NCBI GenBank assembly: GCA_965208675.1
Contig: OZ242351.1
Span: forward strand, 3,008,001 to 3,072,000
Length of the DNA stretch: 64,000 nt
Reading direction: 5' to 3'
Source of the DNA: Candidatus Poribacteria bacterium
GTDB taxonomy: Bacteria; Poribacteria; WGA-4E; PCPOR2b
In this document: positions 20,592-36,532 of the stretch, piece after piece
Position numbering within the stretch: the first letter of the stretch is position 1
Layout: every line of letters starts with the position of its first letter
The notes under the pieces: generated by a model
Seen by the model: only the letters and a program-made list of their open reading frames with translations
Told to the model about the DNA's origin: nothing
The model's database searches: none
Position numbers and translations under genes: made by a program

Positions 20592-20807
20592 AACTTTCTC
20601 CTTATGTATGGTAGTTGACACCGATATGCCAGTCGGTATCGGTACGGGTCAAAGTAAACTCACATCGGTCGAGAACACCCGTTGAGAATCTGTCTATAGT
20701 CTTTTCAAAATTTCCGCACCGGCGCCAAGCGCCGCCGGGACGCCGACGAGCAACGTCGGGTGTAGGGACTCAATTTATCACCCCCTTCTTTTTGTTTGCA
20801 ACTGCCT

Positions 20808-20855
20808 CTATTTTTTAATCTCGCCCCAAACGGCTGCGAGTGCGTGGTTTGAGGC
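20808..20855 (-). pseudogene. Orphan 'WGEIK' C-terminal tail fragment
   Basis: ASNHALAAVWGEIKK*, similar at DNA level to the 3' end of the LamG gene (21763-21815); an in-frame stop lies just upstream. Confidence 0.6.
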
Positions 20856-20882
20856 GCCGGCGATTGGGGATCATCGCTAGAA

Positions 20883-21035
20883 CTATGAGCGGAAGTAGTC
20901 TAGGATATGGAATTCAAACACGTAGGCGATGACAAAATCGACAACGACGAGGAGGCACAATGCCATAAAGCCGACGAAAATCGCCGATAGGAAAAATATC
21001 AAGGTACAGTAAATTATGCGTCTGATGTTTTCCAA
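20883..21035 (-). CDS. Small membrane peptide (50 aa)
   Basis: TTG start after AAGGAGccctacaat; MENIRRIIYCTLIFFLSAIFVGFMALCLLVVVDFVIAYVFEFHILDYFRS. Confidence 0.45.
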   Translation of the reverse strand: MENIRRIIYCTLIFFLSAIFVGFMALCLLVVVDFVIAYVFEFHILDYFRS

Positions 21036-21521
21036 ATTGTAGGGCTCCTTGAGTTAATGCCCGTGCCAAATGTTTTCATCGCGGCAATCAGACAATGCCT
21101 GCCGATATACCGATTACCTTTTTGTGTAATTCCACTTTCCCGTAAACTCACCGGACTGATAGATTTACGCTGTTCTGCGCTCGGCGTATTTCTTAGAGTC
21201 AATCTTGTCGCCATCTCCGCAGCCGTTCAGAACGAGCATACCGACGTTGAGGGCGACGAAACTTTTGTGGGACTGAGATTTTCACGTTCATAGCCGGCGT
21301 CGCGGTGGCGCTCGCCGGGCTAGTTCTTTACGGCAGATTGCAGTGTAATCTTCGGAGATGACACCATGCTGCTTGAAACTTTAGTGGCGTCGTTATCGCT
21401 TATTCTAGCCACGGGAGTATACCTCGCTAACAAGCGAGCCAAAGCACATCTTGCACTAAAGCACCCGCGTATCATCGGGGCTGGTGCACGGGCAATACAG
21501 CAGTGAGTTTTTTAAAGGCCG

Positions 21522-21707
21522 TTACTGCGGCATTAAAATTAGGTACGCCACCATCAGCGGTTGTTCGCCAGACATAAGTCCAATTGTTAAGTATACCTTC
21601 TCTGTTTTAGTTTCTGTAGCGTCTTGATTGATTTCAATATACGACACGGCAGTTGTATTTATGGCCAATCCATGATTTGGCGAAAATTCTTCAAGCAACA
21701 AAAACAT
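21522..21707 (-). CDS. Small hypothetical protein ('MF...L.N...I' family)
   Basis: Preceded by repeat module A with a strong RBS. Confidence 0.55.
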   Translation of the reverse strand: MFLLLEEFSPNHGLAINTTAVSYIEINQDATETKTEKVYLTIGLMSGEQPLMVAYLILMPQ

Positions 21708-21765
21708 CGTAATTCTCCTTTTGTAAGAGATTCTTGGGGGAGTTGGCAGCCTCCCCTTTTTTTTA
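21705..21765 (-). repeat. Intergenic module A (A-tract, GC hairpin, RBS-ATG)
   Basis: Minus strand: taaaaaaaaaggggaggctgccaactcccccaagaatctcttacaaaaggagaattacgATG. Confidence 0.85.
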
Positions 21766-22506
21766 CCTCTTAATCTCGCCCCAAGAGACTGCGAGTGTGT
21801 GTTTTGGGGCGACGGCGAGCACGGTTTTTAGCCCGCGGTTCATGACAGTACGAATGTCGCGTGGGGGGAGCGCGATATTGAATATGGCGAACTCGTCGAT
21901 AAGCCCAGGAAACCTGTTTGGCCCACCAATTATAAACCGGAGATTATTCCTGTCGTCGGGCGGAACGTATGTTGTCGATCTATTCAGTGATGCGAACAAT
22001 TCCCCATCCACATAGATAGCCATTAGATTTTTGCGCCTGCTATGCACAAACGCCCAGTGCCGCCAGACCTCCCGAGTTATCATGCCAGCTTCGATTACCA
22101 ATTCGACGTATGGCGATCCGCACCGCCAACGCACAGCTTCATCCCAAGGCAATAACACGGCGATAACCCCTTCTTTTTCATCGAATGGCTGTAACGTGCT
22201 AAATAGGCGGCCATTCAGACCGTCGAAATTCTTTGTCCACGCCATAACCGTTATTTCCTCAATTTGCTGTTCTGGCGGGAAATCCCTATATGTTGTGAGG
22301 TAGCTTACTCGAAAATTAAGGCATTTTCCAAACATGCCGTCAATCCATGCACGCTCACCTAACACCGATAAACGCTTGCCTGATGCACTGTAGGGGCGCC
22401 AGTCTTTGCCTTCGTTGAAAAGCTAGGCGTCGATAACTAAATCCTTGTTGGCGGCATGGACGGCGATTGCCGCTAAAAAGCATACTGTGCTAATCAGCGC
22501 TTTCAT
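21763..22506 (-). pseudogene. LamG/concanavalin-like secreted protein with an in-frame TAG at codon 28
   Basis: MKALISTVCFLAAIAVHAANKDLVIDA*LFNEGK...GMFGKCLNF...ITVMAW...WRHWAF...YVDG...GLIDEFAIFN...SWGEIKR; TAG at 22423-22425. Confidence 0.75.
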
Positions 22507-22984
22507 TAGCTCGCTCCTCGCTTTCCTTTCTGCTGCGTGCTCTCATTTCTTCAAACTGTTTATCAAATTCAGCCTTGAGTTTGGCTATCCGCGCCTTGCT
22601 TTCGACGCGATACGTATCACGGCTCGCTTCTTCTTTAAATTCGAGTTCTTTCGCGTGTTCCTCCCACGCCTCTTTGTATGCCTGCCAGTGTTCCCACCCG
22701 CCATGAAAGCTATTTATGCGGTCGTTGGGCGCGGGGGTTAGGGCGGAATGGATGATGTCCGATTCTTCAAACGCCTCGCTAACGCTCTTGCCGCGGCGGA
22801 TGGCGGCGGCGATCCAATAGCTTCTATTGGCTCCAAGAAGTTGGCCTAACAAAAAATGACCTTGACGGGGGTTGTCCGTATCGATTTTCTCCGGCGGGCG
22901 ACCGTACACCATGTCGTTGAGGTTATGGGTATGGCTGCATCCGAGGATGAGTAAACATAAGCAGCCGCTAATCAGTGCTTTCAT
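22490..22984 (-). CDS. Lipoprotein, tandem paralog 2
   Basis: MKALISGCLCLLILGCSHTH...AIRRGKSV.EAFEE.D; similar to 22968-23456. Confidence 0.7.
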   Translation of the reverse strand: MKALISGCLCLLILGCSHTHNLNDMVYGRPPEKIDTDNPRQGHFLLGQLLGANRSYWIAAAIRRGKSVSEAFEESDIIHSALTPAPNDRINSFHGGWEHWQAYKEAWEEHAKELEFKEEASRDTYRVESKARIAKLKAEFDKQFEEMRARSRKESEERANESAD

Positions 22985-23456
22985 GGGTATGCCCCTCTCT
23001 GCAACACGACTCTCTGTATTCTTCAAGCCTTTTATCAAAATCGGCTTTGATTTTCGCTTTCCGTGCGTCGCTTTCTGCCTTGTATTTTGCGCGGGATGCT
23101 TTCCTTTCCGCTTCAAGTTGAGCTGTATGTTCTTGCCACGACAGTCTATATGCCTCCCACGTATCCCAATCTGAATAATAGTCGGTGATTCTGTCATTGG
23201 GATTGGGGCTTATGGCATTATAGATGGCGTCCGCTTCTTCAAATGCTTCGTTGACACTCTTGCCGCGGCGGATGGCGTCGCTGATCCAGTGTTCCACATT
23301 GGCTCGGAGCAGGACGCTTAACAATAATTCGGTATCTTTGGGGTCGTCCGGATTCATTGTTTCCGGGGGGCGTGCATAGTGCATTTCGCTAATGTTGTGG
23401 GTATGGCTGCATCCGAGAATGACCAAACACATACAGCTGCTAATCAGCATTTTCAT
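22968..23456 (-). CDS. Lipoprotein, tandem paralog 1
   Basis: GGAGGG RBS; MKMLISSCMCLVILGCSHTH...AIRRGKSVNEAFEE. Confidence 0.7.
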   Translation of the reverse strand: MKMLISSCMCLVILGCSHTHNISEMHYARPPETMNPDDPKDTELLLSVLLRANVEHWISDAIRRGKSVNEAFEEADAIYNAISPNPNDRITDYYSDWDTWEAYRLSWQEHTAQLEAERKASRAKYKAESDARKAKIKADFDKRLEEYRESCCREGHTHESTD

Positions 23457-23677
23457 TTTGTTTCCCTCCTTTGTTTGGAAAGAGCAGGTTGGAGGAAACA
23501 CGCTCACTGGCTAGAATATGAACGCAGTCAAAATACCTGCTCTCTCCGTTGTTTTGACCGTGATATGTCAATCCGGATGACAACATCATCTGGTAGGCGG
23601 CGCGATACGACTTGTTTGCGAAAGTGTTAGGTGCGCATTGGGTGTTACCCGCGTAACCCAACGTACAAAGACTCCCT

Positions 23678-24229
23678 TTACCTTAGTTTCCGCCATTTCA
23701 TTGTTATGCGATTGTCGCGAGTTAAAGAATGCCAGATAAGCGTTAAAACAACGCCATCCCATTTGTATTCCAATAGGACGCCATAATTCCATCTAACATC
23801 GTAACTGTGGTATCGCATAAACAAGTATTTCGAGCTATACGCGAAAATCGCCGATCTGTGTAGTTGGATTCTGTAATATTTGGGATTATTGTCTTCAGGA
23901 TAAAAAGGGCTAACAGATTCCCATTCAGAATCGAAATTGTAGTCTTGTTCTATTACAAATTCAAATTTATGGTCTAGTTCTATAGTTAATTCGCCGCGCA
24001 TTTCTTCTGCATTTTCAACCAGCCAATCACGTCCGTCATTGTATGTCTCCAGCCGATACTTTCCGACCAAATCCTTGTGTAGCGCAACTGCTTCAGATTC
24101 ATGCGTGTGGTCGTGCTGATGGCTATGGTGATGGTCGTGTTCGTGCGGGTGTTCATGTTCAGCTATAGGGTGAGTGTGTCCGCACCCAGCAAGGACGATT
24201 AACGCTATTAACAGAATAAAAGCCTTCAT
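23678..24229 (-). CDS. His-rich lipoprotein with lipocalin-like C-terminal region
   Basis: MKAFILLIALIVLAGC then GHTHPIAEHEHPHEHDHHHSHQHDHTHE; LVGKYRLE. Confidence 0.7.
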   Translation of the reverse strand: MKAFILLIALIVLAGCGHTHPIAEHEHPHEHDHHHSHQHDHTHESEAVALHKDLVGKYRLETYNDGRDWLVENAEEMRGELTIELDHKFEFVIEQDYNFDSEWESVSPFYPEDNNPKYYRIQLHRSAIFAYSSKYLFMRYHSYDVRWNYGVLLEYKWDGVVLTLIWHSLTRDNRITMKWRKLR

Positions 24230-24392
24230 TGGGTCATCTTCCTCTTTGCAAGGTGTTGTGAGTAATTGGCACTCGATTCTTTCAGTCTGTTTAATCTGTA
24301 TCTCGACCTGTCTCATCGCTTCATCGTCCCAACCTTCGGGGAAATCCGCCTCAGTCACAACAACACCTCCTTTCAACCCGTGTCTAACAATA

Positions 24393-24884
24393 TCACTTCA
24401 AATGGCAGCGAAATGTGAGTTGTGCTGGCTTATAGCCCAAGCGACCAATTATTCGTCTAGCTAATTCCACCGTGCGATCGGCACCATGGTATTTTAACAC
24501 CCAGAGTTTTAGTGGATGCACAAATTCCCACCTCCTCTTGACTCTTGGGAGAGGCTGCTTAGCTGAAAATATAGAACACTTTAGCAATCCATCGTACAAT
24601 GCTTTTTTATCTGTACTACGCTCATGCAACTCTCGACACAAAAGCGGTAATACGTCTTTCCAATGTTCAACCTTGCATGTCCGCGTCCCCAATGTAAATG
24701 ATGTTGGCTTGGTATCGACATAGGAAGTTTCATCCGTGACATGATTTTCTTCATCGGTCGGTCGAACACTCATTATGGCTACCAAATCTTTTCTTAGACG
24801 TGCAATATCATCCTTAGTGGCTAGATTGGATAACGCTTCCTTCAAATCTTCTTTGGTGAGCGGTTCGCTTACTGGGTATGGCAT
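24393..24884 (-). CDS. Hypothetical protein; ATKDD coiled segment plus a possible SeqA-C-like DNA-binding domain
   Basis: LATKDDIARL; KPTSFTLG....VEHWKDVLPLLCREL. Family assignment is tentative recall. Confidence 0.45.
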   Translation of the reverse strand: MPYPVSEPLTKEDLKEALSNLATKDDIARLRKDLVAIMSVRPTDEENHVTDETSYVDTKPTSFTLGTRTCKVEHWKDVLPLLCRELHERSTDKKALYDGLLKCSIFSAKQPLPRVKRRWEFVHPLKLWVLKYHGADRTVELARRIIGRLGYKPAQLTFRCHLK

Positions 24885-24971
24885 TCGAGTATTCCCCTTA
24901 TGAGATAGACGACGCGGACAGAAGTATGTGGTGCGGTAGCCGACATAAGAGCCTTCCGCCCCCGTCATATT

Positions 24972-25295
24972 TTATTCGCCATACACTGTGACTGTATAGA
25001 CAGCATAAATCCCCAGCACACTTTTCGACGAATAGTCAACATGGTGAATCTTCGTAATGCCGCCGTTCTTGGCAGCAGCTTCAATGCTCGCATCTCCAGT
25101 TGCGACTAACCCTAATACCGAAGTTACGGTCGCCGAACCGGATTTCATAGCGGCAGTGTCGCTCGCAGTCGCCGTTACCGGTGCTTTAACATCGGTGTAC
25201 AATACACCGGTAACTGGCGACGTGCTATAAGCAACACAACCTGTTAGATAGGATATAGCTACTACAAGAATAAACAACATGCCGAGATGTCTCAT
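24972..25295 (-). CDS. TRL-like family lipoprotein
   Basis: LTGC lipobox; GVLYTDVKAP; SVLGLVATGDASIEAAAKNGGITKIHHVDY. Confidence 0.85.
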   Translation of the reverse strand: MRHLGMLFILVVAISYLTGCVAYSTSPVTGVLYTDVKAPVTATASDTAAMKSGSATVTSVLGLVATGDASIEAAAKNGGITKIHHVDYSSKSVLGIYAVYTVTVYGE

Positions 25296-25354
25296 CGTAA
25301 TATCTCCTTTTTGTAAAGGGTTGTGGGGAAGGCGGCAGCCTCCCCCTTTTTTTA
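25293..25354 (-). repeat. Intergenic module A
   Basis: taaaaaaaagggggaggctgccgccttccccacaaccctttacaaaaaggagatattacgATG. Confidence 0.85.
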
Positions 25355-25549
25355 TTTTGTTTGCGTCGGAATTAACAATCGTTCCAAGTACCTCCAATGC
25401 AATTCTAATGCCTCTGGGGTTCCCTTTTTTATTACTATAGCTCCGTGCTCTTCCGGAGCATAGCCTGCAATACGATTGCCCTCATGGACAATTCTCGTAA
25501 GCCGACTCGTATTTACTAGGGTACGATCGTCGTCGGTTTTTATAAACAT
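25352..25549 (-). CDS. Small hypothetical protein ('MF...LVN...I' family)
   Basis: AGGAGGTG RBS; MFIKTDDDRTLVNTSRLTRIVHE. Confidence 0.6.
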   Translation of the reverse strand: MFIKTDDDRTLVNTSRLTRIVHEGNRIAGYAPEEHGAIVIKKGTPEALELHWRYLERLLIPTQTK

Positions 25550-25555
25550 TGAAAA

Positions 25556-25825
25556 TCACCTCCTTTCAGTCAGCTCTTCATCGCGGGAGGGTCTGTTGAT
25601 AATATCGATAAATCGCCCGTGTTTATCGACATATTCGATGGTACGCAATTCTTGGTTTGCCTTCTTTTTTTCTTCTGCCATATACTCAACCTACCAGGTC
25701 CTGTCTCTATCCAAAGTAATGGTGGTAAAGGGATGCTGGTTGGTATAGGACATGGCGTCTAAGAACCAAAAGCAAAATCCAACGAATGCGAGCGCGATTA
25801 TCGGGGGAATCAAGTTTCGGTTCAT
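25556..25825 (-). pseudogene. Degenerate copy of 27830-28174
   Basis: Near-identical 5' ~230 bp; TTG to TAG at 25691-25693; different 3' end. Confidence 0.8.
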
Positions 25826-25857
25826 TTTGTTTTCTCGCTGACCGTTGGGGCGTATCG

Positions 25858-26250
25858 CTAATCGTCCACATCAAACCTAATATTTCGATAACCGCCGCGC
25901 CAGGAAATAACTAGGGGTGTTACCCCGCATAATGGTTTAAGAGGATTGTCATGAATGATTTTTGTCACCGCGTCATGTTTCCTGCTTACGTTCCACTCTA
26001 TCTCTGTCTGATATAACCCTTTGCAACCGCTGACGGTAACGTTTTCCGCAGGCCCGTCAAACTGTACGTAATACCTAATGCCTGAGCCCCAACCGCCTTC
26101 CCCCCCAGGCATTATACCGGAGGAAACGTGAATAATACGGGCATCTTCGGCATGGGAATCGCAGCCAACGAGCGCAACCAAGCAGATAACGACAGCAAGC
26201 GCCGTGATAATAGCGAGTAGCGGGGACAAGCGTTTGCGCAATCGGGGCAT
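25858..26250 (-). CDS. Lipoprotein
   Basis: MPRLRKRLSPLLAIITALAVVICLVALVGCDS; leader aaaggcagtctacaATG. Confidence 0.6.
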   Translation of the reverse strand: MPRLRKRLSPLLAIITALAVVICLVALVGCDSHAEDARIIHVSSGIMPGGEGGWGSGIRYYVQFDGPAENVTVSGCKGLYQTEIEWNVSRKHDAVTKIIHDNPLKPLCGVTPLVISWRGGYRNIRFDVDD

Positions 26251-26293
26251 TGTAGACTGCCTTTCGTATGCCTTATAATTTAGTTTGAAAAAG

Positions 26294-26380
26294 GGTGGCA
26301 GCGGAGAGGTCGCAGCAAGGTTAAACCTCGCGGAGCCGCGGAAATGCCCCTCAGCATAACCGCGGCGTTTACTCCCTTCC
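26294..26380. repeat. Structured repeat C, copy 1
   Basis: ggagaggtcgcagcaaggttaaacctcgcggagccgcggaaatgcccctcagcataaccgcggcgttta, almost identical to 27701-27793. Confidence 0.85.
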
Positions 26381-26493
26381 ACGATACCTTTCGTGCTTTG
26401 GGGGTGCGACAATCGCATAAAACATCCAAGCAAAGAAAAAGATTGTAAACAACTTTTCCCTGACATTGCAGGTCTCCTTATGATGCGCCTCGG

Positions 26494-26697
26494 TTAGAGA
26501 ACGCCTCCGAGTAGCCAGCCGAACCTGGATTCCACGGCAGCGGCGAAACACCATAGCCCGACAACGAAGACCAAAAAACCTATCCCAAAGAATCCCAGCC
26601 AAACCCAACCGGGGGGACCGTCTCGGCTCCAATCGTCTTCAATTTTACAACCTATTCCGAAAACAACTAGGAATACGATGATGGCAAGCGCTCCCAT
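26494..26697 (-). CDS. Small 2-TM protein
   Basis: aaaggagacctctATG; MGALAIIVFLVVFGIGC... Confidence 0.55.
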   Translation of the reverse strand: MGALAIIVFLVVFGIGCKIEDDWSRDGPPGWVWLGFFGIGFLVFVVGLWCFAAAVESRFGWLLGGVL

Positions 26698-26711
26698 AGA
26701 GGTCTCCTTTG

Positions 26712-26861
26712 TTAATGCCCAAGTAATGCGGCAAAAAAGCGAATGAATGCGTACATTAGGCTGCCGAAGATGAGTAAGACGGCAATCATCATCAATGCCC
26801 ACATGACATACGGCTCGACAAGCTCCCATATCAACAGCAGTAATCCTAGTAATTCCGACAT
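26712..26861 (-). CDS. Small membrane peptide (49 aa)
   Basis: aaaggagacctacaATG; MSELLGLLLLIWELVEPYVMWALMMIAVLLIFGSLMYAFIRFFAALLGH. Confidence 0.55.
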   Translation of the reverse strand: MSELLGLLLLIWELVEPYVMWALMMIAVLLIFGSLMYAFIRFFAALLGH

Positions 26862-26893
26862 TGTAGGTCTCCTTTGTTGGAGCGTATCGCTAG

Positions 26894-27298
26894 TTACTCT
26901 TCACCTAAAGCAGGATCTAGGTGTATTATTCCTCTTTTATCTATCATTGTAATGCCAGCCAGCAGGTCGTCATCAATAGCCATAGCAATTGATGAAGTGC
27001 CGCCATTGCCAGAGACTGCGACACGCCCTCCATACTTATTCACGCCAATTATTACGCCTCTATCACTGAATAGTTTAAAAGTATCCGTGAGAGTGTTGAT
27101 GCTTTCCATATTAGGAACAAGAATTATCCGCGTTGTGCCGTCCGTATCGACGACTCGCAAACTGGTACACTCAATATCTCCTAACTTTGCGCGTTCAGCG
27201 AAGAGGCTAGGCATCAAGACACTAGAGGCTATCATACCTATCAGCATCAATATCCCGCCGATTGTAATATAGGCTAACTTCTGTTTGTAAGTTTTCAA
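26894..27298 (-). CDS. 'GDIEC' family membrane-anchored beta-rich protein
   Basis: AAGGAGG plus TTG start; KQKLAYITIGGILMLIGM...LGDIECTSLRVVD. Confidence 0.65.
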   Translation of the reverse strand: MKTYKQKLAYITIGGILMLIGMIASSVLMPSLFAERAKLGDIECTSLRVVDTDGTTRIILVPNMESINTLTDTFKLFSDRGVIIGVNKYGGRVAVSGNGGTSSIAMAIDDDLLAGITMIDKRGIIHLDPALGEE

Positions 27299-27700: not shown

Positions 27701-27832
27701 GGTGGCGGCGGAGAGGTCGCAGCAAGGTTAAACCTCGCGTAGCCGCGGAAATGCCCCTCAGCATAACCGCGGCGTTTAACCTCCCCTCCGCCATAAGATT
27801 ATGGGGGAGGCGGCTGCCTCCCCCTTTTTTTA
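27701..27832. repeat. Structured repeat C, copy 2, followed by the module-A hairpin/T-tract
   Basis: Ends cctccGCCA (27793), then gggggaggcggctgcctcccccttttttt. Confidence 0.85.
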
Positions 27833-28174
27833 TCTCTGTGGTCTTCTACCGGGGTTTCTCATTATCTCCGGGATGCTGGACGGATCCACATAAAAGGGTT
27901 CTGTTTTCAGCTTTTTCGGGCGTTTGATAACAGGGGTTCTGTGGGTAATATCGATAAATCGACCCTGCTTGTTGTGGACGTATTCGATGGTACGAAATTC
28001 ATAATCGTATTTCTTCTTTTCTTCTGCCATGTACTCAATCAACCAAGCCCTTTCTCTATCCAAAGTAATGGCGGTAAAGGGATGCTGGTTGGTATAGGAC
28101 ATGGCGTCTAAAAACCAAAAGCAAAATCCAACGAATGCGAGCGCGATTAGCGGGGGAATCAAGTTTCGCTTCAT
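27830..28174 (-). CDS. Membrane-anchored hypothetical protein (intact paralog of 25556-25825)
   Basis: GGAGGGaaacaaaATG; MKRNLIPPLIALAFVGFCFWFLD. Confidence 0.65.
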   Translation of the reverse strand: MKRNLIPPLIALAFVGFCFWFLDAMSYTNQHPFTAITLDRERAWLIEYMAEEKKKYDYEFRTIEYVHNKQGRFIDITHRTPVIKRPKKLKTEPFYVDPSSIPEIMRNPGRRPQR

Positions 28175-28193: not shown

Positions 28194-28604
28194 TTACTGG
28201 CTATAGCCGTTTTTGTCGTAGATGGACACGGCGCCGTTGCCATGTTCGTTGATGCCCATGATGGCGTAGCCTTTCGATCTGCCATGCGTACTTACATAGC
28301 CGCCATGTTCATCAGTACCGATTCTCACTTGTTTATTATCTACAGCGTCACCCTCGCGGAGGAAGACATCACCGGCACCGATTATCGTAGCTCTTGTTGG
28401 AGCGTCTTTCCACATAGCAATGGATTGTTTACTAATAAGTATAAACGCATCTTCGAGTCCACTGCCAATCTTCAAGCTCGTGCATTCAATATCTCCGAAT
28501 TTATCCTGTTGTGCGGTTATAGGTGATAGCAGCATCCCAATAATGGTAAAAATACTGCCTAACGCCATTAGCCCTGCCTTTTGCTTCCAAGTGGTTTTGA
28601 TCAT
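28194..28604 (-). CDS. 'GDIEC' family protein
   Basis: MIKTTWKQKAGLMALGSIFTIIGMLLSPITAQQDKFGDIECTSL...MGINEHGNGAVSIYDKNGY. Confidence 0.7.
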   Translation of the reverse strand: MIKTTWKQKAGLMALGSIFTIIGMLLSPITAQQDKFGDIECTSLKIGSGLEDAFILISKQSIAMWKDAPTRATIIGAGDVFLREGDAVDNKQVRIGTDEHGGYVSTHGRSKGYAIMGINEHGNGAVSIYDKNGYSQ

Positions 28605-28804: not shown

Positions 28805-28872
28805 ATGTAACCTCCTTTTCTGTGGAAAATGTCCGATAATGTAGATTAGCGGACAGCCTTTCAGTCCGCTTT

Positions 28873-30564
28873 TCATCTCTTATAAGCCGACCGGTCAGTA
28901 TTCCCGCCGTATTTCATCGCATACACGAACATATTCACCATGAACCGATGCACGTCCGCGGAACGGCGCATCCGCAGCATTGTCCGGCTGGGGATTTCCG
29001 CCGTCTCCATCGCACAGAGATAATCCTTCCGATTGTACACCACTGCGAGGCGGCGCCCGATTGTAATCCCCTTCTGAAACTTAAACTTTGTCACCTTCGG
29101 GTTGTTTTCAGACCCCCAATACACATCAGACCCGTTCGGCGGAATAGACAGCTTGTAATAGATAGAATAAATCTCGTGGCTGTGGGGAACAGACTGGAGC
29201 GGGTATTCCGGCATAATTTTCTTCAATTCATCAGCGACACGCGCAGCGAACAAGCCCTTGAACCCGCAATCATCGAAAAATAGCAGCCCGCCGCGTTCCA
29301 CAAGATACTTTCTCATCGCCGACCGTTCTGCCGGTGTAAAGCCCGACAGCCACGGCTCGCCGCGCATCAGGTTACGGGTTGTGGTCAACTCCTTATCGTG
29401 ACCTGTCATGACAATTATCGGCGCATCGAGGATTCGCGGATCTGTCATCCGCATCGCGCCGCCCTCCAGTTTCATATCCGCACGCAGCCGAGTGTTGTCC
29501 GATAACCACCGCATGAAACTCGGCAGAGCTGACGGGTCTTGCCACCAATCTGCAAGGGAATGTATTAACCGAGTAAAGCGGATGTGACCTTGTATATCCG
29601 CGCCCTCACCCTCTAAAATAGCACCTAACTTATCATCAGGGACAGTCGTGATTTTAGCCAACGGGTCGTCTCCCGCGCCGCCGGCATCAGCAGCCCCGAC
29701 CGACCCCACCAGCGAGTCAATTCCGCTCGAATGAATCCCGCCGCGGCCGGGCCCGTTGATGTCGTCCGTACCCCGCCCGTGTCCGGTTCTGAGACCCCGG
29801 CGCCTTCCAACCCCCGGCGCAATAACCTCCTCATTGCGTCTAGTGTCAAGCTGTGCCGCCGTCGTGACAGGCGCATCGACAATCGCGTCGGGCGTCAACG
29901 GCGACACGTCCATTGATACGCTTCCCGGCGCCGGCGCAATCGGCTTAGCAATTCTTTGAGCAGCCGAAACGCGAACCGACTGGGCAATCGGTTTCACGGC
30001 TGGGCGCACCGGCTCCGGGGGTTTAGGCTTAATCTTTTTAGGGCGCCTAGTCTTTGGCACCGGCTTTACCATCTCCACGGCAATCGCATCTTCGATAACC
30101 TCCGCATCGTCGGTTGCCAGTATAAAAATGACAAAAGCCAAGATAACGTGCGCCACCGCGGAGATTAACATCGAATTGCGGACTTTACTACTCTTTTCGG
30201 TGACAACCGCCGCCGCGGCCTTGGACGCCAATGATTCGGGTGTGTATCCGGACGCGCTCAGGTAGTAGGTCTGTCCGCCGCAATCAACCTGCATCTGTCC
30301 ACCCGGGAGGCTCCGGAACTGGGCGCTTTCGCCTGCTCGGATTATTTCGCTCACCCGTATAATCGGCAGACTTACCGACCCCGGTTGTGCAATCTCCGCG
30401 TCGATTGTTATTTTTCGGTCTGCGGCGAAAAGCTCAAGCCTGTCAACGCCAATGCTCCGCACACGAACATCGGAAACATTCGATAGCTGATTTTCTCGCG
30501 CCGCCTGTGATTGGAGCGACTTAATCGCCTTCAGAATATTTGCTGTTTCTATCGTGAATTGCAT
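28873..30564 (-). CDS. Fusion: beta-clamp(DnaN)-like N-terminal domain + TM/Pro-rich linker + DUF4159-like domain
   Basis: MQFTIE...LKAI..L...LELFAAD....AEIAQPGSVSLP resembles DnaN domain I; MLISAVAHVIL TM; PIIVMTGH, MRKYLVERGGLLFFDDC and HEIYSIYY are typical of DUF4159. Confidence 0.7.
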   Translation of the reverse strand: MQFTIETANILKAIKSLQSQAARENQLSNVSDVRVRSIGVDRLELFAADRKITIDAEIAQPGSVSLPIIRVSEIIRAGESAQFRSLPGGQMQVDCGGQTYYLSASGYTPESLASKAAAAVVTEKSSKVRNSMLISAVAHVILAFVIFILATDDAEVIEDAIAVEMVKPVPKTRRPKKIKPKPPEPVRPAVKPIAQSVRVSAAQRIAKPIAPAPGSVSMDVSPLTPDAIVDAPVTTAAQLDTRRNEEVIAPGVGRRRGLRTGHGRGTDDINGPGRGGIHSSGIDSLVGSVGAADAGGAGDDPLAKITTVPDDKLGAILEGEGADIQGHIRFTRLIHSLADWWQDPSALPSFMRWLSDNTRLRADMKLEGGAMRMTDPRILDAPIIVMTGHDKELTTTRNLMRGEPWLSGFTPAERSAMRKYLVERGGLLFFDDCGFKGLFAARVADELKKIMPEYPLQSVPHSHEIYSIYYKLSIPPNGSDVYWGSENNPKVTKFKFQKGITIGRRLAVVYNRKDYLCAMETAEIPSRTMLRMRRSADVHRFMVNMFVYAMKYGGNTDRSAYKR

Positions 30565-30575
30565 ACGGCAAGTAT

Positions 30576-31445
30576 TCAATCCTCAATTTTGAACCGATAC
30601 GGAACAATTATGCGGATTGTGACCGGTTTGCCGTCTTTTTGCGCCGGCTTAAACCGCGACCGTTTCAACGCCTCGATTGCTGCTTCATCACAGCCCATTC
30701 CAATTCCCGCTCTTACCTTAATATCTCTGGCTTTGCCGTCAATTCCGATGGTCGCCTCTAACTTCACAACCCCTTCTTTTCCGGCATGACGGGCACGTTC
30801 CGGATACTTCGGCTTCGGCTTATGGATGGCTTTCGGCGGTACGGTGTTATCCGTAATGTCCACGACGGGTACGTTGACAGTGTCGTCTAGCCCAATATCT
30901 GCGTCCGGGATGTCTGTCTCCATCTCGTTAAAAATTGATGGTCGGTCAGGCCTGGTGGTGGGAATCTTCGGCAATTCAGGTTCAATGCTTGGGCGTTCCC
31001 CTTCGGCAATTGGCGGCCTTTCAATCTTGGGAATCTCCGGCGGTGCATCAGGTGAGTCAATAACAAGGTTATCTGAAGGAACAGCATATCCGCCTGAGCC
31101 GGACGGAATGTCCACCGGTTTTACGGGCTGGCTGGGTCGGGTTGTCGGAGTTAGCCGTACTTCGGGTTTAATTGTCTTAGCTTCACGCTCAGGTTCACGA
31201 GGTGGGGGTTTAACCTTCTTCGCCTCAAACATTTCAGTTACCACTGCATCATCATCGTGAATCGCTACATTTTGGGCGATGTGAAAAGCGACAAACAGCA
31301 TGATGACCAAATGGAAAGCAAGAGATACAATCCACCCAAGAGATTTAGACACGCGATTTTTCTTTCTCTGCCGCCGCTCTAAAATCGGCTCAACCGCAGG
31401 AATCCGGCGTTTACGTTCATGATTTAGCGAATTTGACTTGGACAT
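30576..31445 (-). CDS. tonB: TonB-family energy transducer
   Basis: TM with SLAFH (S-x3-H), Pro-rich linker, PKYPERARHAGKEGVVKLEATIGIDG...FKPAQKDGKPV. Confidence 0.9.
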   Translation of the reverse strand: MSKSNSLNHERKRRIPAVEPILERRQRKKNRVSKSLGWIVSLAFHLVIMLFVAFHIAQNVAIHDDDAVVTEMFEAKKVKPPPREPEREAKTIKPEVRLTPTTRPSQPVKPVDIPSGSGGYAVPSDNLVIDSPDAPPEIPKIERPPIAEGERPSIEPELPKIPTTRPDRPSIFNEMETDIPDADIGLDDTVNVPVVDITDNTVPPKAIHKPKPKYPERARHAGKEGVVKLEATIGIDGKARDIKVRAGIGMGCDEAAIEALKRSRFKPAQKDGKPVTIRIIVPYRFKIED

Positions 31446-31495
31446 GGCTCGAAAATCTCCTTCCTTTGTAAGGGGTTGTGGGGGAGGTGCCCCCG
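31443..31495 (-). repeat. Intergenic module A (variant)
   Basis: cgggggcacctcccccacaaccccttacaaaggaaggagattttcgagccATG. Confidence 0.75.
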
Positions 31496-31501
31496 GTTAA
31501 C

Positions 31502-31633
31502 CTACTTTTTGCTAGATTTAGATTTGGGGTTAGGGTTGTTGGTTTTGCCTTTACCCGATTCTTTGCCGTGTACCTTACTTGGCTTATTCTGAGGGTAAAC
31601 AGCCTTACTTGCCTTTCCTTTTTGCTTTGCCAT
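31502..31633 (-). CDS. Small basic Lys/Gly/Ser-rich peptide (43 aa)
   Basis: GGAGGTG RBS; MAKQKGKASKAVYPQNKPSKVHGKESGKGKTNNPNPKSKSSKK. Confidence 0.65.
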   Translation of the reverse strand: MAKQKGKASKAVYPQNKPSKVHGKESGKGKTNNPNPKSKSSKK

Positions 31634-31694
31634 TGTTTATCACCTCCTTCCTTTCTTTTATTGGCTGGGGCTGGTGAAATACGCGATTATATGA

Positions 31695-31949
31695 CTAATT
31701 GTTCCTTCTGCGTCTCTTATGAGGATTGCCTTTTCGCCAACCTGTTTGATATCCCCGCATATAATCCTTGCATGGTATATCAAAACAGATTGGACAATTG
31801 TTGGGAAATACTAATAGCCCAGTCTTGCCGTGCTCTAGCCCCTTCGCATAACCTTTGGCGTAATGACTAGAGACGGCATTCTTAGTTTTAGCTCCACAGC
31901 TCAAACTTAAAATTACCATTATTGTTAGAATAAGTGGTTTATACATCAC
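31695..31949 (-). CDS. Small lipoprotein with YxxGYxxG repeats
   Basis: LSLSC lipobox; YAKGYAKG, YMRGYQTG; preceded by a module A variant (31947-31988). Confidence 0.55.
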   Translation of the reverse strand: MMYKPLILTIMVILSLSCGAKTKNAVSSHYAKGYAKGLEHGKTGLLVFPNNCPICFDIPCKDYMRGYQTGWRKGNPHKRRRRNN

Positions 31950-32000
31950 ATTGTGTAAGGGTTGTGGGGGAAGGGGTAGCCTCCCCCTGTGGAGAAGAAG

Positions 32001-32312
32001 CTAAAGCCTAGGGCTAGCGACAAACATGGGAAATACATGTTCATTCCCTTCCCAGTCGGAAATAGTAATCTCTCCTCTCGAATAATCACTATCATCATCA
32101 TGCTCGATGACAGTAACACAGACTTTTGCGTCACTATTGCGGTCCCGCACAACAATCCTTGGCAATCCTTGATCATCCATGGTCAAGTCAAGGATACCTA
32201 TGATTGAAATTGTGTTGTTCTTAATCCAAATAGTGGGATTACCTTCGTCGTCAACGATTGTAATACTTTTGCAAGTTACAGATTCATAGGTTGGATTAGT
32301 TGTATCAGACAT
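32001..32312 (-). CDS. Beta-rich small protein related to the 'GDIEC' family (no TM leader)
   Basis: YESVTCKSITIVDDEGNP; preceded by module A. Confidence 0.6.
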   Translation of the reverse strand: MSDTTNPTYESVTCKSITIVDDEGNPTIWIKNNTISIIGILDLTMDDQGLPRIVVRDRNSDAKVCVTVIEHDDDSDYSRGEITISDWEGNEHVFPMFVASPRL

Positions 32313-32369
32313 CGTAAATCTCCTCTTTGTAAGGGTTGTGGGGGAGGTGGCGGCCACCCCCTTTTTTTA
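32310..32369 (-). repeat. Intergenic module A
   Basis: taaaaaaagggggtggccgccacctcccccacaacccttacaaagaggagatttacgATG. Confidence 0.85.
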
Positions 32370-32400
32370 TTGCGTTTGCGCCGGGTCGTACTCATCCTCC

Positions 32401-32808
32401 TTACTTATCCCTGAAACTCTCGCATTCAATATCGCCATATTTGGTCTTGCGCAGTAATTGAATTTCTTCCTTCATGGTTTCGACCTCAGTGTGTAAACTT
32501 TTATACCATTCGTATATCTGCTCATCGGTTAGCGGAAAAGGAATCTCGCCCGGCATGATCACAAGTTTATCGGTTGCCGTGGCTTCTTCATTGACCGCGA
32601 ATTCGCTTGCCTCGGCGTTCGTGAGCATTTGTTGTATCAAATGCGGTTTAGGCGTCGAATCAGCCGCCCAAATATCTTCTACGACTTCTGTTTCGGTGAT
32701 CGGCTGGGCGCAGAAGTTACAGATTTTAATGGTCGTCACGTATAAACCCCAGCCGACGATTGCCGCAAATGCGACCGCGGCGATGATGAAGCTAATCAGG
32801 ATTTTCAT
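32401..32808 (-). CDS. Membrane-anchored hypothetical protein, chimeric with a GDIEC tail
   Basis: MKILISF leader; ends KYGDIECESFRDK. Confidence 0.55.
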   Translation of the reverse strand: MKILISFIIAAVAFAAIVGWGLYVTTIKICNFCAQPITETEVVEDIWAADSTPKPHLIQQMLTNAEASEFAVNEEATATDKLVIMPGEIPFPLTDEQIYEWYKSLHTEVETMKEEIQLLRKTKYGDIECESFRDK

Positions 32809-33161
32809 TTTTTCGCTCTTCTTTTCGACAACTCTTTTTCGATATCAGCGTCCACCAGCCGAATATACTCGGGATCGGTTACAATCCACGCATGAGGGAT
32901 TCCGCTTTGGCGCTTTTCGCGGTAATACCGTGACGAATCCGAATTATAAACGAAACAATTTTTAAGGGCATCGTTGGCGGCAGCCGAAACGGCATCGATT
33001 CTTGCCGTCATATCGTCAGCTAAAGCGATGGCATTGTCGATTTGTTCTATCTCTTTCTTTGCAGACGCTCTCACTCCAAGTTGTTTCCGTTTAGCGTCTT
33101 TGAGGCAAGTATCTTTCAAATCGGTGTCGCCCGATTCCATGGATACGGTACCAATAACCAT
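32805..33161 (-). CDS. Hypothetical protein (true start apparently damaged)
   Basis: The frame extends upstream to aaaggagaaac-aaacat with no ATG there; ATGA overlap with the next gene. Confidence 0.45.
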   Translation of the reverse strand: MVIGTVSMESGDTDLKDTCLKDAKRKQLGVRASAKKEIEQIDNAIALADDMTARIDAVSAAANDALKNCFVYNSDSSRYYREKRQSGIPHAWIVTDPEYIRLVDADIEKELSKRRAKK

Positions 33162-33242
33162 AAATTTGTCGCCTTCCAGTTCGTAGGAATAAATCCCGGG
33201 CGTGATTGGCTTCTTGACGAGATAACGATGTTTGTTTCTCCT

Positions 33243-33422
33243 TTAAAAAAACTCGATGTCTCTGACTAAATTGGCGTAAGCATCGAAAATTTTCAATTTC
33301 AGGGTTCGGTGACTGGGTAGGGTTTTATCCGTTTGGATATACTGTCCGCGCGGTAAACCGGAATCTTTATCCGCGGAGCCGAGGATGACCAGACAGATCA
33401 AGCAGCTAATCAGGGATTTCAT
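33243..33422 (-). CDS. Short secreted peptide or fragment with 'MKSLISC' leader
   Basis: Leader shared with the 22968-23456 family (CLVILG), body unrelated. Confidence 0.45.
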   Translation of the reverse strand: MKSLISCLICLVILGSADKDSGLPRGQYIQTDKTLPSHRTLKLKIFDAYANLVRDIEFF

Positions 33423-33627
33423 TGTCAGCCCCTTTTGCCGTAACTGTGAGGTGAATATATTTTTCTTCATCATAAAAAATGTAGATATGGCCGTCTTTGG
33501 ATGTATCTAAATGGGTAATAGAGGCTCGAAGGTAGTTTTGGACTCCTTGGGCTTCCGTATTGCGATAACCCACTCTGACAACGCTTTCATCAGTGCTGTC
33601 CAAATTAAACTTTTCTGCTTTTAACAT
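33406..33627 (-). CDS. Small hypothetical protein
   Basis: aaaggagatttacaATG leader; stop supplied by junction motif B. Confidence 0.55.
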   Translation of the reverse strand: MLKAEKFNLDSTDESVVRVGYRNTEAQGVQNYLRASITHLDTSKDGHIYIFYDEEKYIHLTVTAKGADNEIPD

Positions 33628-33644
33628 TGTAAATCTCCTTTCGA

Positions 33645-34046
33645 TTACTTGTGGATATAACCGTTTTTGTCGTAGGCAGATATGGCGCCGTGCCCCTTGT
33701 CGTCGATACCCATGATGACAGAACCTTTCGATCTTACATGGGTGCTTACAAAACCTCCGTGTCTATCCGTACCGATTATCACTTTTTTATCCCCTTCGCG
33801 GAGGAGCACTTCATCGGCACTGATCACCGCACCTCTAAATGTTGGACCGTCGTCGAAAATCGCAATGTCATATGGTCTAATATGTATAAGCACATCGCCA
33901 CTGCTAACCTTCAAGCTCTCACATTCAATATCTCCGAATTTTTCCTTTTGTGCGGATATGGGCGACAGCAGCAGGCCGATAATGGTGAAAATACTGCCTA
34001 ACGCCATTAGACCTGCCCTTTACTTCCAATTAATCAGGGGTTTCAT
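33645..34046 (-). pseudogene. 'GDIEC' family paralog of 28194-28604 with TAA at codon 9 (could restart at ATG 34007)
   Basis: MKPLINWK*RAGLMALGSIFTIIG versus MIKTTWKQKAGLMALGSIFTIIG; TAA at 34020-34022. Confidence 0.65.
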
Positions 34047-34329
34047 TAAATATCTCCGTTTCAAGGCGATTGATGAAATTTAACAACGTCTCAGGGTCAT
34101 CATGATACCTATCAAGTGCGGACGCCTTTTCGCCCGGTTTCAGGTTTTTCGCTAACGTCCTTTCGAGACGCCAACCGCTACCCTTCAAACCTACAAATCC
34201 CTTGAGCTCGTCAAACGATTTTAGAGGGAACGATACCGCCCAGTATATATCATCATAGTACAGGCGCCCGTAAACACGTCTGTGCCGTGGTGGAGGCGGG
34301 GAAGTCCGTACTGTCATTTTTTCAGTCAT
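34030..34329 (-). CDS. Hypothetical protein
   Basis: AGGAGGAGG RBS; 99 aa. Confidence 0.6.
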   Translation of the reverse strand: MTEKMTVRTSPPPPRHRRVYGRLYYDDIYWAVSFPLKSFDELKGFVGLKGSGWRLERTLAKNLKPGEKASALDRYHDDPETLLNFINRLETEIFNETPD

Positions 34330-34659
34330 AACCTCCTCCTTTTTTTATAAAATGTCCGATCATATGGGTTAGCGGGCATTTTCATTGGTGGAAAAATGGG
34401 CGGCGAGGAACAAGCACCTTATGAGCGTGACTTTCAGTCCGCTCTTCATCGCGGCAAAGGCTGCAATCCTACTTACCCGATTAGGAATCCTATTTTCCTA
34501 TTCGGGTATCCGTCGGCAATCTGCGTTAGCGCGGTTGCCGCCATAAGGCGACGGGGGCAGGAGTAAGTGTGCGATCGGTCACAATCTGCATGAATCCCCC
34601 GCTCCCCGTCATAAGATTATGAGTTGCATCAAGCATATACAGCACACCGCCTGAAAAAA

Positions 34660-34919
34660 TCATCGTAACCGCAATATTCGCGCCCCTCCTTCAATCTGCA
34701 TAACAAGGTCGTTCCAAACGGCGTTGTAATCTTGTTGGTCTGGCGTGCTATAGAGAGTGTACCGATGCCGGGTTTCAGGCTTTGTTGACGGGTCATGCAA
34801 ATCTACGCCCACCGCCACAATATGATATTGTCCGCCATCTACCTCTAATTCCGCTAATTCCGCGCAATCTATAGCGTTAATGTTTACTAATCTGTTAGAT
34901 GGTAATTCTCCAAGAACAT
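34660..34919 (-). pseudogene. Small 'MF...LVN...I' family gene with a frameshift near the start
   Basis: aaaggagatttacaATG TTC TTG is out of frame by 2 nt with ELPSNRLVNINAID... Confidence 0.55.
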
Positions 34920-34989
34920 TGTAAATCTCCTTTGTCTGAAGGTGCGTATCGGCAGAAATGCTGTTAACACCCATTGCCAGCCTTCTTGT

Positions 34990-35565
34990 CTATCTTGTGA
35001 ATCTATTTTTTCCGAGAGGAATGCCCATTGCTTTTAGGGCCTGGTACAATGGTATTTGCCACGGGCTTTTTACGCCCCATGGCACTACTGTGGATACTGC
35101 CGAAGGCGGCATTCCAAGACCACCTTCATTGTTATCAGGACGTTTAACTTCGACCAAAGCGACTACTTCACGATCTAACGTTCGTATAATTTTGATATGC
35201 CTTTCAATAGCGAAAGTGCGCACCAAATAGTCGCAGCCAACATCCTCATATTCATCGTATGATTCGGTTATCGTTCCTGCTCCCGCACGAATTGCCGCTA
35301 CGTGCATGGCGGATTCGACAGCAGCAATGCTTTTGGTTACAATGACGTCCTTGGTTTTTTGCGGAGGCATCACTACTTTAACGCCTGCGCTAATCAGTGC
35401 ATGTTCAACTTCGTTTGCAAACCATGCTTGATACAACCGATTGTTGGGCGGTTGTACAATAAATACGGGGTGATGTGGGACATCTCGAACAACAACGGCA
35501 TTGTAGCGAGTAGTACCACAAGCTATCATAAACACACACAATCCCAGAACAAACCCATGCTTCAT
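34990..35565 (-). CDS. Lipoprotein
   Basis: AGGAG RBS; MKHGFVLGLCVFMIACG. Confidence 0.65.
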   Translation of the reverse strand: MKHGFVLGLCVFMIACGTTRYNAVVVRDVPHHPVFIVQPPNNRLYQAWFANEVEHALISAGVKVVMPPQKTKDVIVTKSIAAVESAMHVAAIRAGAGTITESYDEYEDVGCDYLVRTFAIERHIKIIRTLDREVVALVEVKRPDNNEGGLGMPPSAVSTVVPWGVKSPWQIPLYQALKAMGIPLGKNRFTR

Positions 35566-36532
35566 TTTAAGTAAACTCCTACTATTGAAAGTTAAACATC
35601 TATTCTCGTTGTTTGCCAAGCTGTTAAGGTATTGGAGTGCTTTTTGTGGGTTTCGGTTTTGTATTTGTACCACTCGCCAGCATCCCAACCTTTTGGTGTT
35701 TTCATGCCATAGTAATAATCGTTTCTCAAATCTTCTAGCGTTGGTTGATTAGATTTTCTACGAAGAGTTGGCCCTACGCAAGAACCTACCGCCTTAAACC
35801 CCTTGGGAATTACCGTACAACACAGAGTAACAACACCAATCTGAGCATTTCAGTAGATTGCTTATGACATCTATGGGTCATTATTAAACTCCTTTCTTAG
35901 TATTAGCCATAGCCGTTTGAATTCTCTCTGTGAGCTTTTTTCAAGATGAAGTCAATTGCCATCAAAGGCACACAATCAAAGCGAGTAATGCTATTGCTGA
36001 AGGATTTATTTTGATTCCTACCCATATAGAGTTGAATAAGCAATCGCATTTTATTGGTTATAATTTGGGCACACGCAAAAATTCCGACTTACTGGCGCCG
36101 CGAAGACATGGCACAACACTGCCAAAGCGGCGGCTATTTTGTATTTCGTTTGGAACACGAACGATAGACGAACAGGCAGCAACCTTCTATCGTCGGCTCG
36201 AACTGAACCCACTGCCATAAAGTCTATTGATATAAATACATGGAACTTCCCTCCCTCCTTCCATTCCCCGGCGAAGGGGTGCGGCAGGCATCACGGCACC
36301 GTGATGCCGCCTCCTGCCGCGGGAAAGATTATAAGATGCGTAAATCTCTTGCACCAGCCGGATCAGAGAAAGACGATCTGCCTCCTCTTTACTATGGCAA
36401 AAACCGTGCCAACGGTCGGTCTAAGGAAGGGTTCAACTCTGTAAAGGCATAGAAATCCAGTGGTAGCTTGGCTTTGATAGGTATGGGAAGGAGTCAGACG
36501 GACGGTAGCGTGACAGGGTGCGGGTTGAAAAA

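Follow-up and report, generated by a model that had tools for sequence, protein, structure and literature searches.

The chromosome of one Candidatus Poribacteria bacterium, available as a single contig of 4.89 Mb with 49% G+C, carries a dense array of small genes whose anatomy and evolution are the subject of this work. The array lies in a stretch of 64,000 nucleotides (nt), G000:C1:3008001-3072000, which we call the window and to which all coordinates without a label refer; G000 is the genome of the window, and G001, G002, and G003 are the congeners with which it was compared. A previous, sequence-only reading had described about 30 short open reading frames (ORFs), all on the minus strand at 20.8–36.3 kb, as a system that captures, duplicates, and re-leaders genes for surface proteins, possibly as the variable region of a larger mobile element. 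With starts chosen by hand from Shine-Dalgarno (SD) sites, and without a gene caller, 32 ORFs or fragments are counted between 20883 and 35565, in keeping with that description; all are on the minus strand, thirty are 41–200 amino acids (aa) long, and the other two measure 289 and 563 aa. Four of the 31 junctions are overlaps, 11 span up to 35 nt, nine 36–100 nt, and seven more than 100 nt; 24 of the 31 thus overlap or are no longer than 100 nt, and the array is probably polycistronic. Its co-orientation is regional: every ORF of at least 150 aa taken as a gene, from 583 to 48843, lies on the minus strand, and the GC skew is negative throughout.

A crude lipobox and hydropathy script, combined with reading of the sequences, marks about eight of the 32 products as lipoprotein-like (lipobox) and gives about 12 a membrane span, N-terminal or internal, so that the earlier description of the products as mostly lipoproteins or membrane proteins applies to roughly 20 of the 32. 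Pfam recognises only four families in the array, Laminin_G_3, TRL, DUF4159, and TonB_C, to which NCBIfam adds nothing of note, and most of the array proteins are singletons in G000. Strong SD sites and hairpins are unusually dense here relative to the genome: the pattern AAGGAG(5–10)ATG occurs 13 times in the array against 542 times genome-wide, and GGAG stands at −18 to −5 in just 486 of 1809 long ATG-started ORFs of G000. The five paralog groups, chimeras, and single lesions mentioned in the earlier description are all present, with several chimeras and three one-base nonsense lesions. The groups are the GDIEC family, the pair g16/g22, a lipoprotein pair with a reused signal peptide, Laminin_G_3 with a 3′ scrap, and the tails of DUF4159 genes.

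The GDIEC family is represented by g15 (28194–28604), a signal anchor followed by a beta meander, with paralogs at 26894–27298 (g18) and 33645–34007, by the anchor-less g9 (32001–32312; 103 aa), which has a GDIEC-type beta domain, and by the tail of g8 (32401–32808), which ends in the family motif. The second of these paralogs belongs to g4 (33645–34044), which is interrupted by a TAA codon at 34020–34022, the corresponding codon being CAA in g15 and CAC in the G002 homologue, and which could restart at an internal methionine. The family is strongly expanded, with more than 30 tblastn match places in G000, several of them as arrays, and has 37 database matches, for which the sole source name given is poribacterial. 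An alignment of 21 of these 37 matches with the three window paralogs displays a conserved signal anchor and a conserved C-terminal end around a hypervariable middle. An AlphaFold2 model (predicted local distance difference test score, pLDDT, 83.8) consists of an N-terminal helix and the beta meander; Foldseek found no significant match to it in the PDB (best OspA, E = 0.035), and the g9 protein has no relative among Joint Genome Institute (JGI) metagenome contigs. Elsewhere in the chromosome, a GDIEC tandem array at G000:C1:3835876-3838301 (L026:7876-10301) adjoins a 604-aa ATPase with weak terminase-like and DEAD matches.

The remaining groups carry scars of duplication. The 114-aa membrane protein g16 (27830–28174; 81% aa identity to G002) has a broken, chimeric copy in g22 (25556–25825), with an in-frame TAG at 25691–25693 and a 3′ end that comes from a DUF4159 tail scrap. 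In the Laminin_G_3 gene (21763–22506) the signal peptide is followed by a TGG to TAG change at 22423–22425, and a 3′ scrap of another copy of this gene is found at 20815–20863. A tandem pair of lipoprotein genes (22490–23456), whose products are 55% identical, has its signal peptide repeated on g6 (33243–33422), where the lipobox cysteine is replaced by serine. The TonB-like (289 aa) and DUF4159 (563 aa) genes at 28873–31445 are, judging from 79% nt identity, old paralogs of the genes at G000 2391098 and 4822360, and a TRL-family lipoprotein gene lies at 24972–25295 (PF13146, E = 1.2e-28).

At least five types of repeated junction are present, where the sequence-only reading had counted at least four. 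The most elaborate joins a hairpin to a translation leader, with the consensus (A-run)GGGGGAGGC-NNNN-GCCTCCCCC-ACAACCCTTACAAAGAGGAGATTTACG-ATG: a 21–22-nt perfect GC stem-loop is followed after 8–14 nt by the SD, and the ATG comes about 25 nt after the hairpin. Since just some 8–14 nt separate hairpin and SD, the module has no room for a promoter; a promoter scan showed no enrichment (19 found, 24.4 expected). The module occupies six of the 31 junctions, once as a half copy, always on the minus strand. J1 (21700–21779) lies between the Laminin_G_3 pseudogene and a 61-aa ORF, J2 (25288–25368; fold z = −3.1) between a 65-aa ORF and the TRL lipoprotein gene, J3 (27768–27846; fold z = −4.9) after g16 and then followed by an 89-nt element, and J4 (31932–32009), with a degenerate SD, between g9 and an 83-aa lipoprotein gene. 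J5 (32305–32383) precedes g9 and includes five codons left over from the end of a g23-like gene, while the half copy (31442–31516), consisting of the 3′ arm and the leader, stands before the TonB-like gene. The five full copies fold as RNA at −13.8 to −22.1 kcal/mol, with z from −0.9 to −4.9. The idea that the leader is a general ribosome-binding-site consensus was rejected, as TTACAA..GGAGA..ATG occurs five times in the genome and three of these are in the array.

A second type joins the tail of a DUF4159 gene to a palindromic, operator-like site, TGTCCGCTAA-N10-CGGACA, at 28817–28890 (minus strand) before g14-g15-g16; a DUF4159-tail scrap with the same site recurs at 34340–34463 (minus strand) before g3-g4, and the tail alone, without the palindrome, at 25563–25595. 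Because other DUF4159 paralogs carry the words GATGAARAGCGGACTGAAAG at their ends too, the copies at 34431–34463 and 25563–25595 are gene-end scraps. The palindrome is present twice in G000, and in G002 similar sites stand before genes. The 89-nt palindromic element is found at 26294–26380 and 27701–27789, in copies that are 94% identical, with imperfect terminal inverted repeats and a three-stem fold at −60 kcal/mol (z = −5.5, copy 2). On the plus strand, copy 2 is directly followed by a sequence with the hairpin+T7 shape of a terminator. As a conserved RNA the element was rejected, being absent from the 30 relatives searched and a private duplicate of G000; Rfam gave two chance-level matches, AniS (E = 0.28) and narK (E = 0.4). 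Finally, short leaders and a post-stop word recur two to three times each, among them TAGCGATACGCYCCAAC, which follows two stop codons, and the leader AGGAGGGAAACAAAATGAA, found at two to three sites. Taken together, the internal repeats of the array amount to eight pairs covering 2332 bp, against a genome median of one pair and 215 bp, and among 315 equal-sized windows of G000 14.6% (pairs) and 13.3% (bp) reach the values of the array; G000 is generally repeat-rich.

The array is part of a larger variable unit. Comparison with the congeners delimits a strain-specific island of about 25 kb (12641–37494; 12.64–37.5 kb), wider than the 20.8–36.3 kb first proposed, between a conserved pair of genes for a BCCT transporter and a 435-aa protein and the PorV-like and PorZ-like genes of a type IX secretion system (T9SS). 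G003 has the left flank up to about window position 12630 joined to the right flank from 37564, with 1.6 kb (a ferritin-like gene) between them, and in G001 the left flank up to 12491 is joined to the right flank from 37564 with 4.3 kb between, which hold a HerA/NurA-like pair as well. G002 has 52 kb between the flanks and shares only pieces with the island of G000. The flanks are 84–88% identical to the window in G001 and G003 and 89–95% in G002. The island of G002 holds ordinary cellular genes, for T9SS cargo proteins, a histidine kinase, TonB, a WD40 protein, binding proteins, a Cu/Zn superoxide dismutase, and HerA/NurA, and no integrase was found in it. Its pieces in common with G000, in a different gene order, are g16 (87% nt), g9 (97%), TonB (87%), the conserved 5′ end of one GDIEC gene, a scrap of 147 nt from the 3′ end of a DUF4159 gene, the palindromic site, and dispersed repeats. 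The same flanking genes thus enclose differing contents in G000–G003, and the view of the array as a variable region is borne out in all three congeners.

Two groups of genes in this hotspot may be mentioned separately. The HerA/NurA-like pair lies at G002 L011:10384-13180 (Pfam matches) and, as a similar-sized pair of 533 and 375 aa for which the name comes from likeness only, at G001:C1:1681558-1685910; neither G000 nor G003 has one at the hotspot. The left part of the island in the window contains a gene for a 907-aa protein of the T9SS-cargo type (17898–20621), whose 84–92% identical homologues in G001–G003 are found at quite different chromosomal places, and by this comparison it appears as a relocated or duplicated segment.

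The ends of the island are marked by genome-wide repeats resembling repetitive extragenic palindromes (REPs). The core TTGTAGGTTGGG occurs in G000 in 210 exact copies, where chance would give 0.6, and in 390 with at most one mismatch, often in inverted doublets some 80–150 nt apart. In the window it occurs at 12840–12957, 17797, 37153–37474, and 63537, and nowhere within 20.8–36.3 kb. A cluster of genome-wide repeats at the left end (12754–13675), which includes the inverted doublet at 12840–12957, is matched by a cluster of the same repeats at the right end (36216–37474). The island of G002 contains 26 copies of TTGTAGGTTGGG (one mismatch allowed), clustered between island segments, and the small gaps of G001 and G003 none. 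Beyond these REP-like repeats, no att-like direct repeats were found at the island ends. Two further repeats stand nearby. One of 223 nt (12985–13207) has at least ten copies at 91–97% identity scattered over G002 and looks like a recently active miniature element, to judge from these copies; the other, noncoding and 840 nt long (36255–37094), is 92–94% identical to G000 83751–84591 and 2637180–2637926, and the longer region of its copy, G000 81265–84591, holds ordinary cargo genes and no transposase.

Sequencing runs with pieces of the region are labelled sponge metagenomes, and they bear on two questions, the age of the lesions and the integrity of the assembly. The three nonsense changes are the TGG to TAG at 22423–22425, the TAG at 25691–25693, and the TAA at 34020–34022. 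At 22424 and 25692, every contig of the metagenomes X5, X6, and X7 that covers the site has the base restoring TGG, and the source-like run X1 agrees with the window, so that two of the three stops are private to this lineage. X5–X7 have next to no cover in some bins (23.4–24.7 and 26.0–27.2 kb), which, as no contig was seen to join across them, is not readable as absence. Because the genome comes from an uncultured symbiont and the region is repeat-rich, the mosaic could be taken for an artefact of a metagenome-derived assembly. We regard this as extremely improbable: the eight X1 contig pieces listed match the window without any difference, two of them (20367–25753, 5387 nt, and 29497–36281, 6785 nt) running through J1, J2, J4, and J5, although X1 may be the source sample and so not independent, and pieces of the region recur at 90–98% identity in the metagenomes of three other studies. 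The gaps between the X1 contigs coincide with internal repeats.

At a probability of roughly 0.6, we read the array as an accessory operon shaped by birth-and-death evolution, set in a hotspot that REP-like repeats flank on both sides. Its genes would turn over as segments are duplicated locally, pieces of genes fuse, ORFs are replaced behind a common translation leader, genes are lost, and new nonsense mutations arise, and the repeated modules (the hairpin with SD leader, the DUF4159 tail with palindrome, the palindromic element, and the short leaders) would be cargo carried along by such events. The shuffling could be done by ordinary host recombination, which might rely on short homologies at the reused junctions when steps are small and on the REP-like TTGTAGGTTGGG clusters at the island ends when they are large; no mechanism beyond host recombination was found. 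The hairpins may function at the RNA level, where they would stabilise the transcript between cistrons or mark sites for its processing, or they may block antisense transcription. With birth-and-death paralog arrays the locus shares duplicated junctions, truncated gene ends, and lineage-private single-base stops; unlike them, it has unrelated orphan ORFs behind one leader.

Several properties of the hairpin-leader weigh against this reading. A profile search of the 4.89-Mb genome finds just six copies, all at 21.7–32.4 kb, that is, within 10.7 kb; these (E ≤ 5e-8) are the training copies, matched by construction, and the informative part is that nothing else was found, the next match having E = 0.086. 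A covariance model adds three clear copies and a weak one in G002 and one of each in G001 and in G003, the weak ones being diverged hairpin-leader junctions between other small genes, and returns none in 37 other relatives. The module is thus local and not genome-wide, in support of the earlier interpretation, and is present in four of four congeneric genomes and in none of the 37. In an alignment of the 11 clear copies the genes on both sides are unrelated, and the likeness stops at the ATG before seven different ORFs, so that the module stands before at least seven unrelated ORFs in the four congeners; simple tandem duplication does not explain such an arrangement, which agrees with the re-leadering suggested in the earlier note. 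Moreover, six of the 11 copies have an A-run upstream of the hairpin, which gives a T-run on the antisense strand. Among hairpin+T5 sites near ORF ends in G000, 29 are sense-only and 11 antisense-only, so that the antisense orientation is the rarer one; two of these 11 are array copies, and a crude scan finds just 113 hairpin+T5 sites in the whole genome. The preferred reading explains neither the antisense T-runs nor the one leader common to unrelated orphan ORFs. Also on this side are the contexts of two genes. The g9 gene with both its flanking hairpins matches G002:2880891-2881284 at 97% identity, starting within the upstream hairpin and reaching as far as the downstream leader, and both its neighbours are different there. 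The g16 unit, which ends in the hairpin in G000 and in G002 alike, keeps its modules in a new context in G002, where the g16 homologue directly follows the palindromic site, and g14-g15 stand between the two in G000. Lastly, a contig of X7 joins 34335 to 25832, two module edges. The g9 and g16 contexts and this joint are what linker-mediated exchange would give.

The corresponding alternative is that the hairpin-leader is a functional, promoter-less linker, which would drive the turnover of the array instead of riding along, with recombination between copies swapping, inserting, excising, or newly expressing small ORFs exactly at the start codon. Besides the copies before unrelated ORFs, the confinement of the module to the array in G000 and to the genus, and the module-bounded g9 and g16 units, it has in its favor a precedent in phages, of which it would be the cellular counterpart. 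The cassettes built from promoter early stem-loops (PeSLs) in T4-like phages are reportedly also treated by Comeau and colleagues in work of 2014. According to Arbiol et al. 2010 (PMC2839356), the hyperplastic regions of these phages contain PeSLs in which a polyG/polyC stem-loop follows a stop codon and the sequence is conserved to the ATG, ORF differences are bounded by the modules, and crossovers fall between the ATG/SD and the −10 box. The poribacterial module is similar in that a stem-loop of a G-run and a C-run comes after the upstream stop, with conservation through the SD and ATG of the next small orphan gene, and in that close relatives differ in the ORFs beside the units. It is dissimilar in lacking a sigma-70 promoter in its roughly 25 nt from hairpin to ATG, in having its T-run on the antisense strand, and in occurring as six copies in a bacterial chromosome free of phage genes at this locus, instead of dozens in a phage. 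The phage cassettes also form mini-circles, which contigs would not reveal.

We nevertheless hold this alternative to be unlikely. The module occupies just six of the 31 junctions, it has no promoter part, and there is no phage recombination system; its copies are 61–87% alike, and the longest exact runs between non-orthologous ones, by reading of the alignments, are about 13–17 nt, a poor substrate for RecA. The X1 contigs cross J1, J2, J4, and J5 without difference, and among 15 listed joints (of 92) those of X1 are all at 37.1–37.5 kb and none in 20.3–36.2 kb, a weak argument because contigs drop rare variants. Other homology breaks fall inside genes, namely those of the GDIEC matches, the G002 DUF4159 scrap, which is a within-gene truncation, and X7 record 30, which stops matching at 32552 inside g8. 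The breakpoints appear to follow the modules only partly. On one side stand the g9 and g16 units, which keep their flanking modules in G002, the X7 joint, and the contigs of X5, X6, and X7 that start in the J4 hairpin (31954–31968); on the other stand the breaks inside genes. Breaks at module edges, besides, discriminate weakly, because any recombinant that keeps genes intact tends to break between them. In a wider survey, the pattern CCCCAYAAYCYTTAC matched in 17 of 176 genomes of the phylum; the six noncongener sites looked at (out of 15 such genomes) have no hairpin, three of them being one conserved sequence and three single. The seven matches of the module pattern in JGI metagenome contigs are likewise all without hairpin or SD.

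Searches for functions that could mobilise the array were empty. Pfam was applied to 27 ORFs of at least 150 aa taken as genes outside the array, 28 ORFs of the array, and 44 further ones (at least 55 aa in 12.5–17.95 and 35.5–37.6 kb, and plus-strand ORFs of at least 90 aa inside the array), and it recognised no integrase domain in any of these and, among the island and array ORFs, no transposase, reverse transcriptase, or virion domain. This upholds the observation, already made in the sequence-only reading, that such genes are missing, as does the absence of PHROGs matches (0 of 30 proteins at E < 0.001). No XerD-family recombinase was seen among the Pfam-scanned ORFs. PADLOC returned nothing for 30 island proteins, 28 of them from the array, its sole matches being AbiTii and a kinase far to the left. 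The search for attC-like sites, with our own regular expression and a complementarity scan, gave no candidate on either strand, and shuffled sequences also gave none, the scan being crude and of unproven sensitivity. Among the listed titles of papers on Poribacteria and genomic islands, none treats poribacterial islands.

A decayed variable region, early or of the “moron” type, of an integrated phage or other mobile element would account for the strong SD sites and the intrinsic-terminator-like hairpins, rare in the genome and dense in the array, for the orphan nature of most genes, and for a tetranucleotide distance at the 94th percentile, which makes the array mildly atypical. We consider such an origin very improbable. 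A megablast search of the whole 15.5 kb against 50,697 phage records found nothing, tblastn of three of the 32 array proteins gave no phage or defence match, and PHROGs was empty as well; there is no integrase, no tRNA (none found in the window), and no att-like direct repeat at the ends, and the array holds the old paralogs of core TonB and DUF4159 genes. Membership in a larger mobile element, as proposed before, is thus not corroborated, there being no phage, plasmid-type, or defence matches.

A further alternative looks to selection instead of mechanism: the array might be an accumulating store of protective or diversifying envelope proteins, for instance orphan immunity proteins directed at toxins of the periplasm or variable surface proteins, in analogy to clusters of acquired interbacterial defence, and selection for novelty would explain the turnover. 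The share of products that are lipoproteins or membrane-anchored, the conserved ends and hypervariable middle of the GDIEC family, and the paralogs, fragments, and chimeras typical of orphan immunity arrays speak for it. The recombinase-associated acquired interbacterial defence clusters (rAID-1) of Bacteroidales are co-oriented arrays of more than 15 kb with up to about 31 small genes, repetitive intergenic DNA, and fragments (10.1101/471110). The poribacterial array resembles these in size, co-orientation, repetitive intergenic DNA, and fragments, but it belongs to a different phylum, has neither the conserved XerD-family recombinase that heads rAID-1 arrays nor recognisable immunity or toxin homologues, where rAID-1 genes are homologous to immunity genes for interbacterial toxins, and shows no marked departure in G+C from its genome (47.6 vs 49.2%). 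No immunity or toxin family was matched in Pfam, NCBIfam, or PADLOC, with structure comparison covering one family, no toxin gene or fragment was recognised, and the fresh stops in three genes argue against strong selection at present. This alternative is in our opinion improbable.

Birth-and-death turnover in a hotspot, which we prefer, has its closest relatives among loci without dedicated machinery. Hotspots, plasticity zones, and “minimal mobile elements” are names for variable segments between conserved core genes. The locus agrees with hotspots and plasticity zones in its conserved flanks, a content that differs in every relative, the lack of mobility genes of its own, and dispersed repeats at its borders, and departs from usual hotspots in that its core is a dense operon of small genes with private junction repeats. 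In integrons, an IntI-type tyrosine recombinase lies next to the array, and each cassette has at its 3′ end an attC site of 55–140 nt, with R″ (RYYYAAC) and R′ (GTTRRRY) boxes and complementary L boxes. The array is like integrons and clusters of attC sites lacking integron-integrases (CALINs) in being made of short orphan genes, mostly without promoters and pointing in one direction, with a palindromic element following genes; it is unlike them in having no IntI, in a 21–22-nt perfect stem without R″ and R′ sites or the 55–140-nt imperfect attC, and in the occurrence of this stem at about a fifth of the junctions. It is also unlike REPs and the hairpin-forming REP doublets (REPINs), which come in tens to hundreds of copies spread over the intergenic regions of a genome, since the hairpin module is not dispersed (six copies, 21.7–32.4 kb); TTGTAGGTTGGG, by contrast, is.

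Of the original interpretation, reuse, duplication, and re-leadering therefore hold, and the capture system and larger mobile element do not; it is partly supported. Against capture stand the missing recombinase and attC-like sites, a main module restricted to a minority of junctions, and the fact that several modules are gene-end scraps, and the fresh nonsense mutations point to decay rather than to an active system. What had been named as speaking against it (identical gene order in related strains, breakpoints unrelated to the modules, modules scattered genome-wide, or misassembly) was not found. If birth and death is the true course of events, the locus is a well-resolved case of turnover of small envelope-protein genes in an uncultured sponge symbiont, in a hotspot bracketed by REP-like repeats, with visible duplication scars and two nonsense mutations datable as lineage-private. 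If, instead, the hairpin-leader is a linker, modular shuffling of the PeSL type would not be restricted to phages, and the array would present a testable path by which orphan genes arise and possibly a nursery for new envelope-protein genes. Neither reading suggests that a new type of mobile element or a new enzyme of recombination is involved.

Outside the hotspot, the window contains housekeeping genes for ThiC, GuaA, UvrD/PcrA, HisF, and an amidase, as well as genes of the T9SS type. Near its left end lies a small defence islet (2543–5215) with a Ser/Thr kinase that PADLOC matches as PD-T4-6/mad6-like (E = 4.7e-37) and with AbiTii (E = 3.3e-33), and most of the stretch at 1.2–5.3 kb has no match in G002 among the matches listed. 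To the right, DUF6785/DUF6784 is represented by two paralogs, one on each strand and within 17 kb of each other, at 43263–45188 and 60264–62186.

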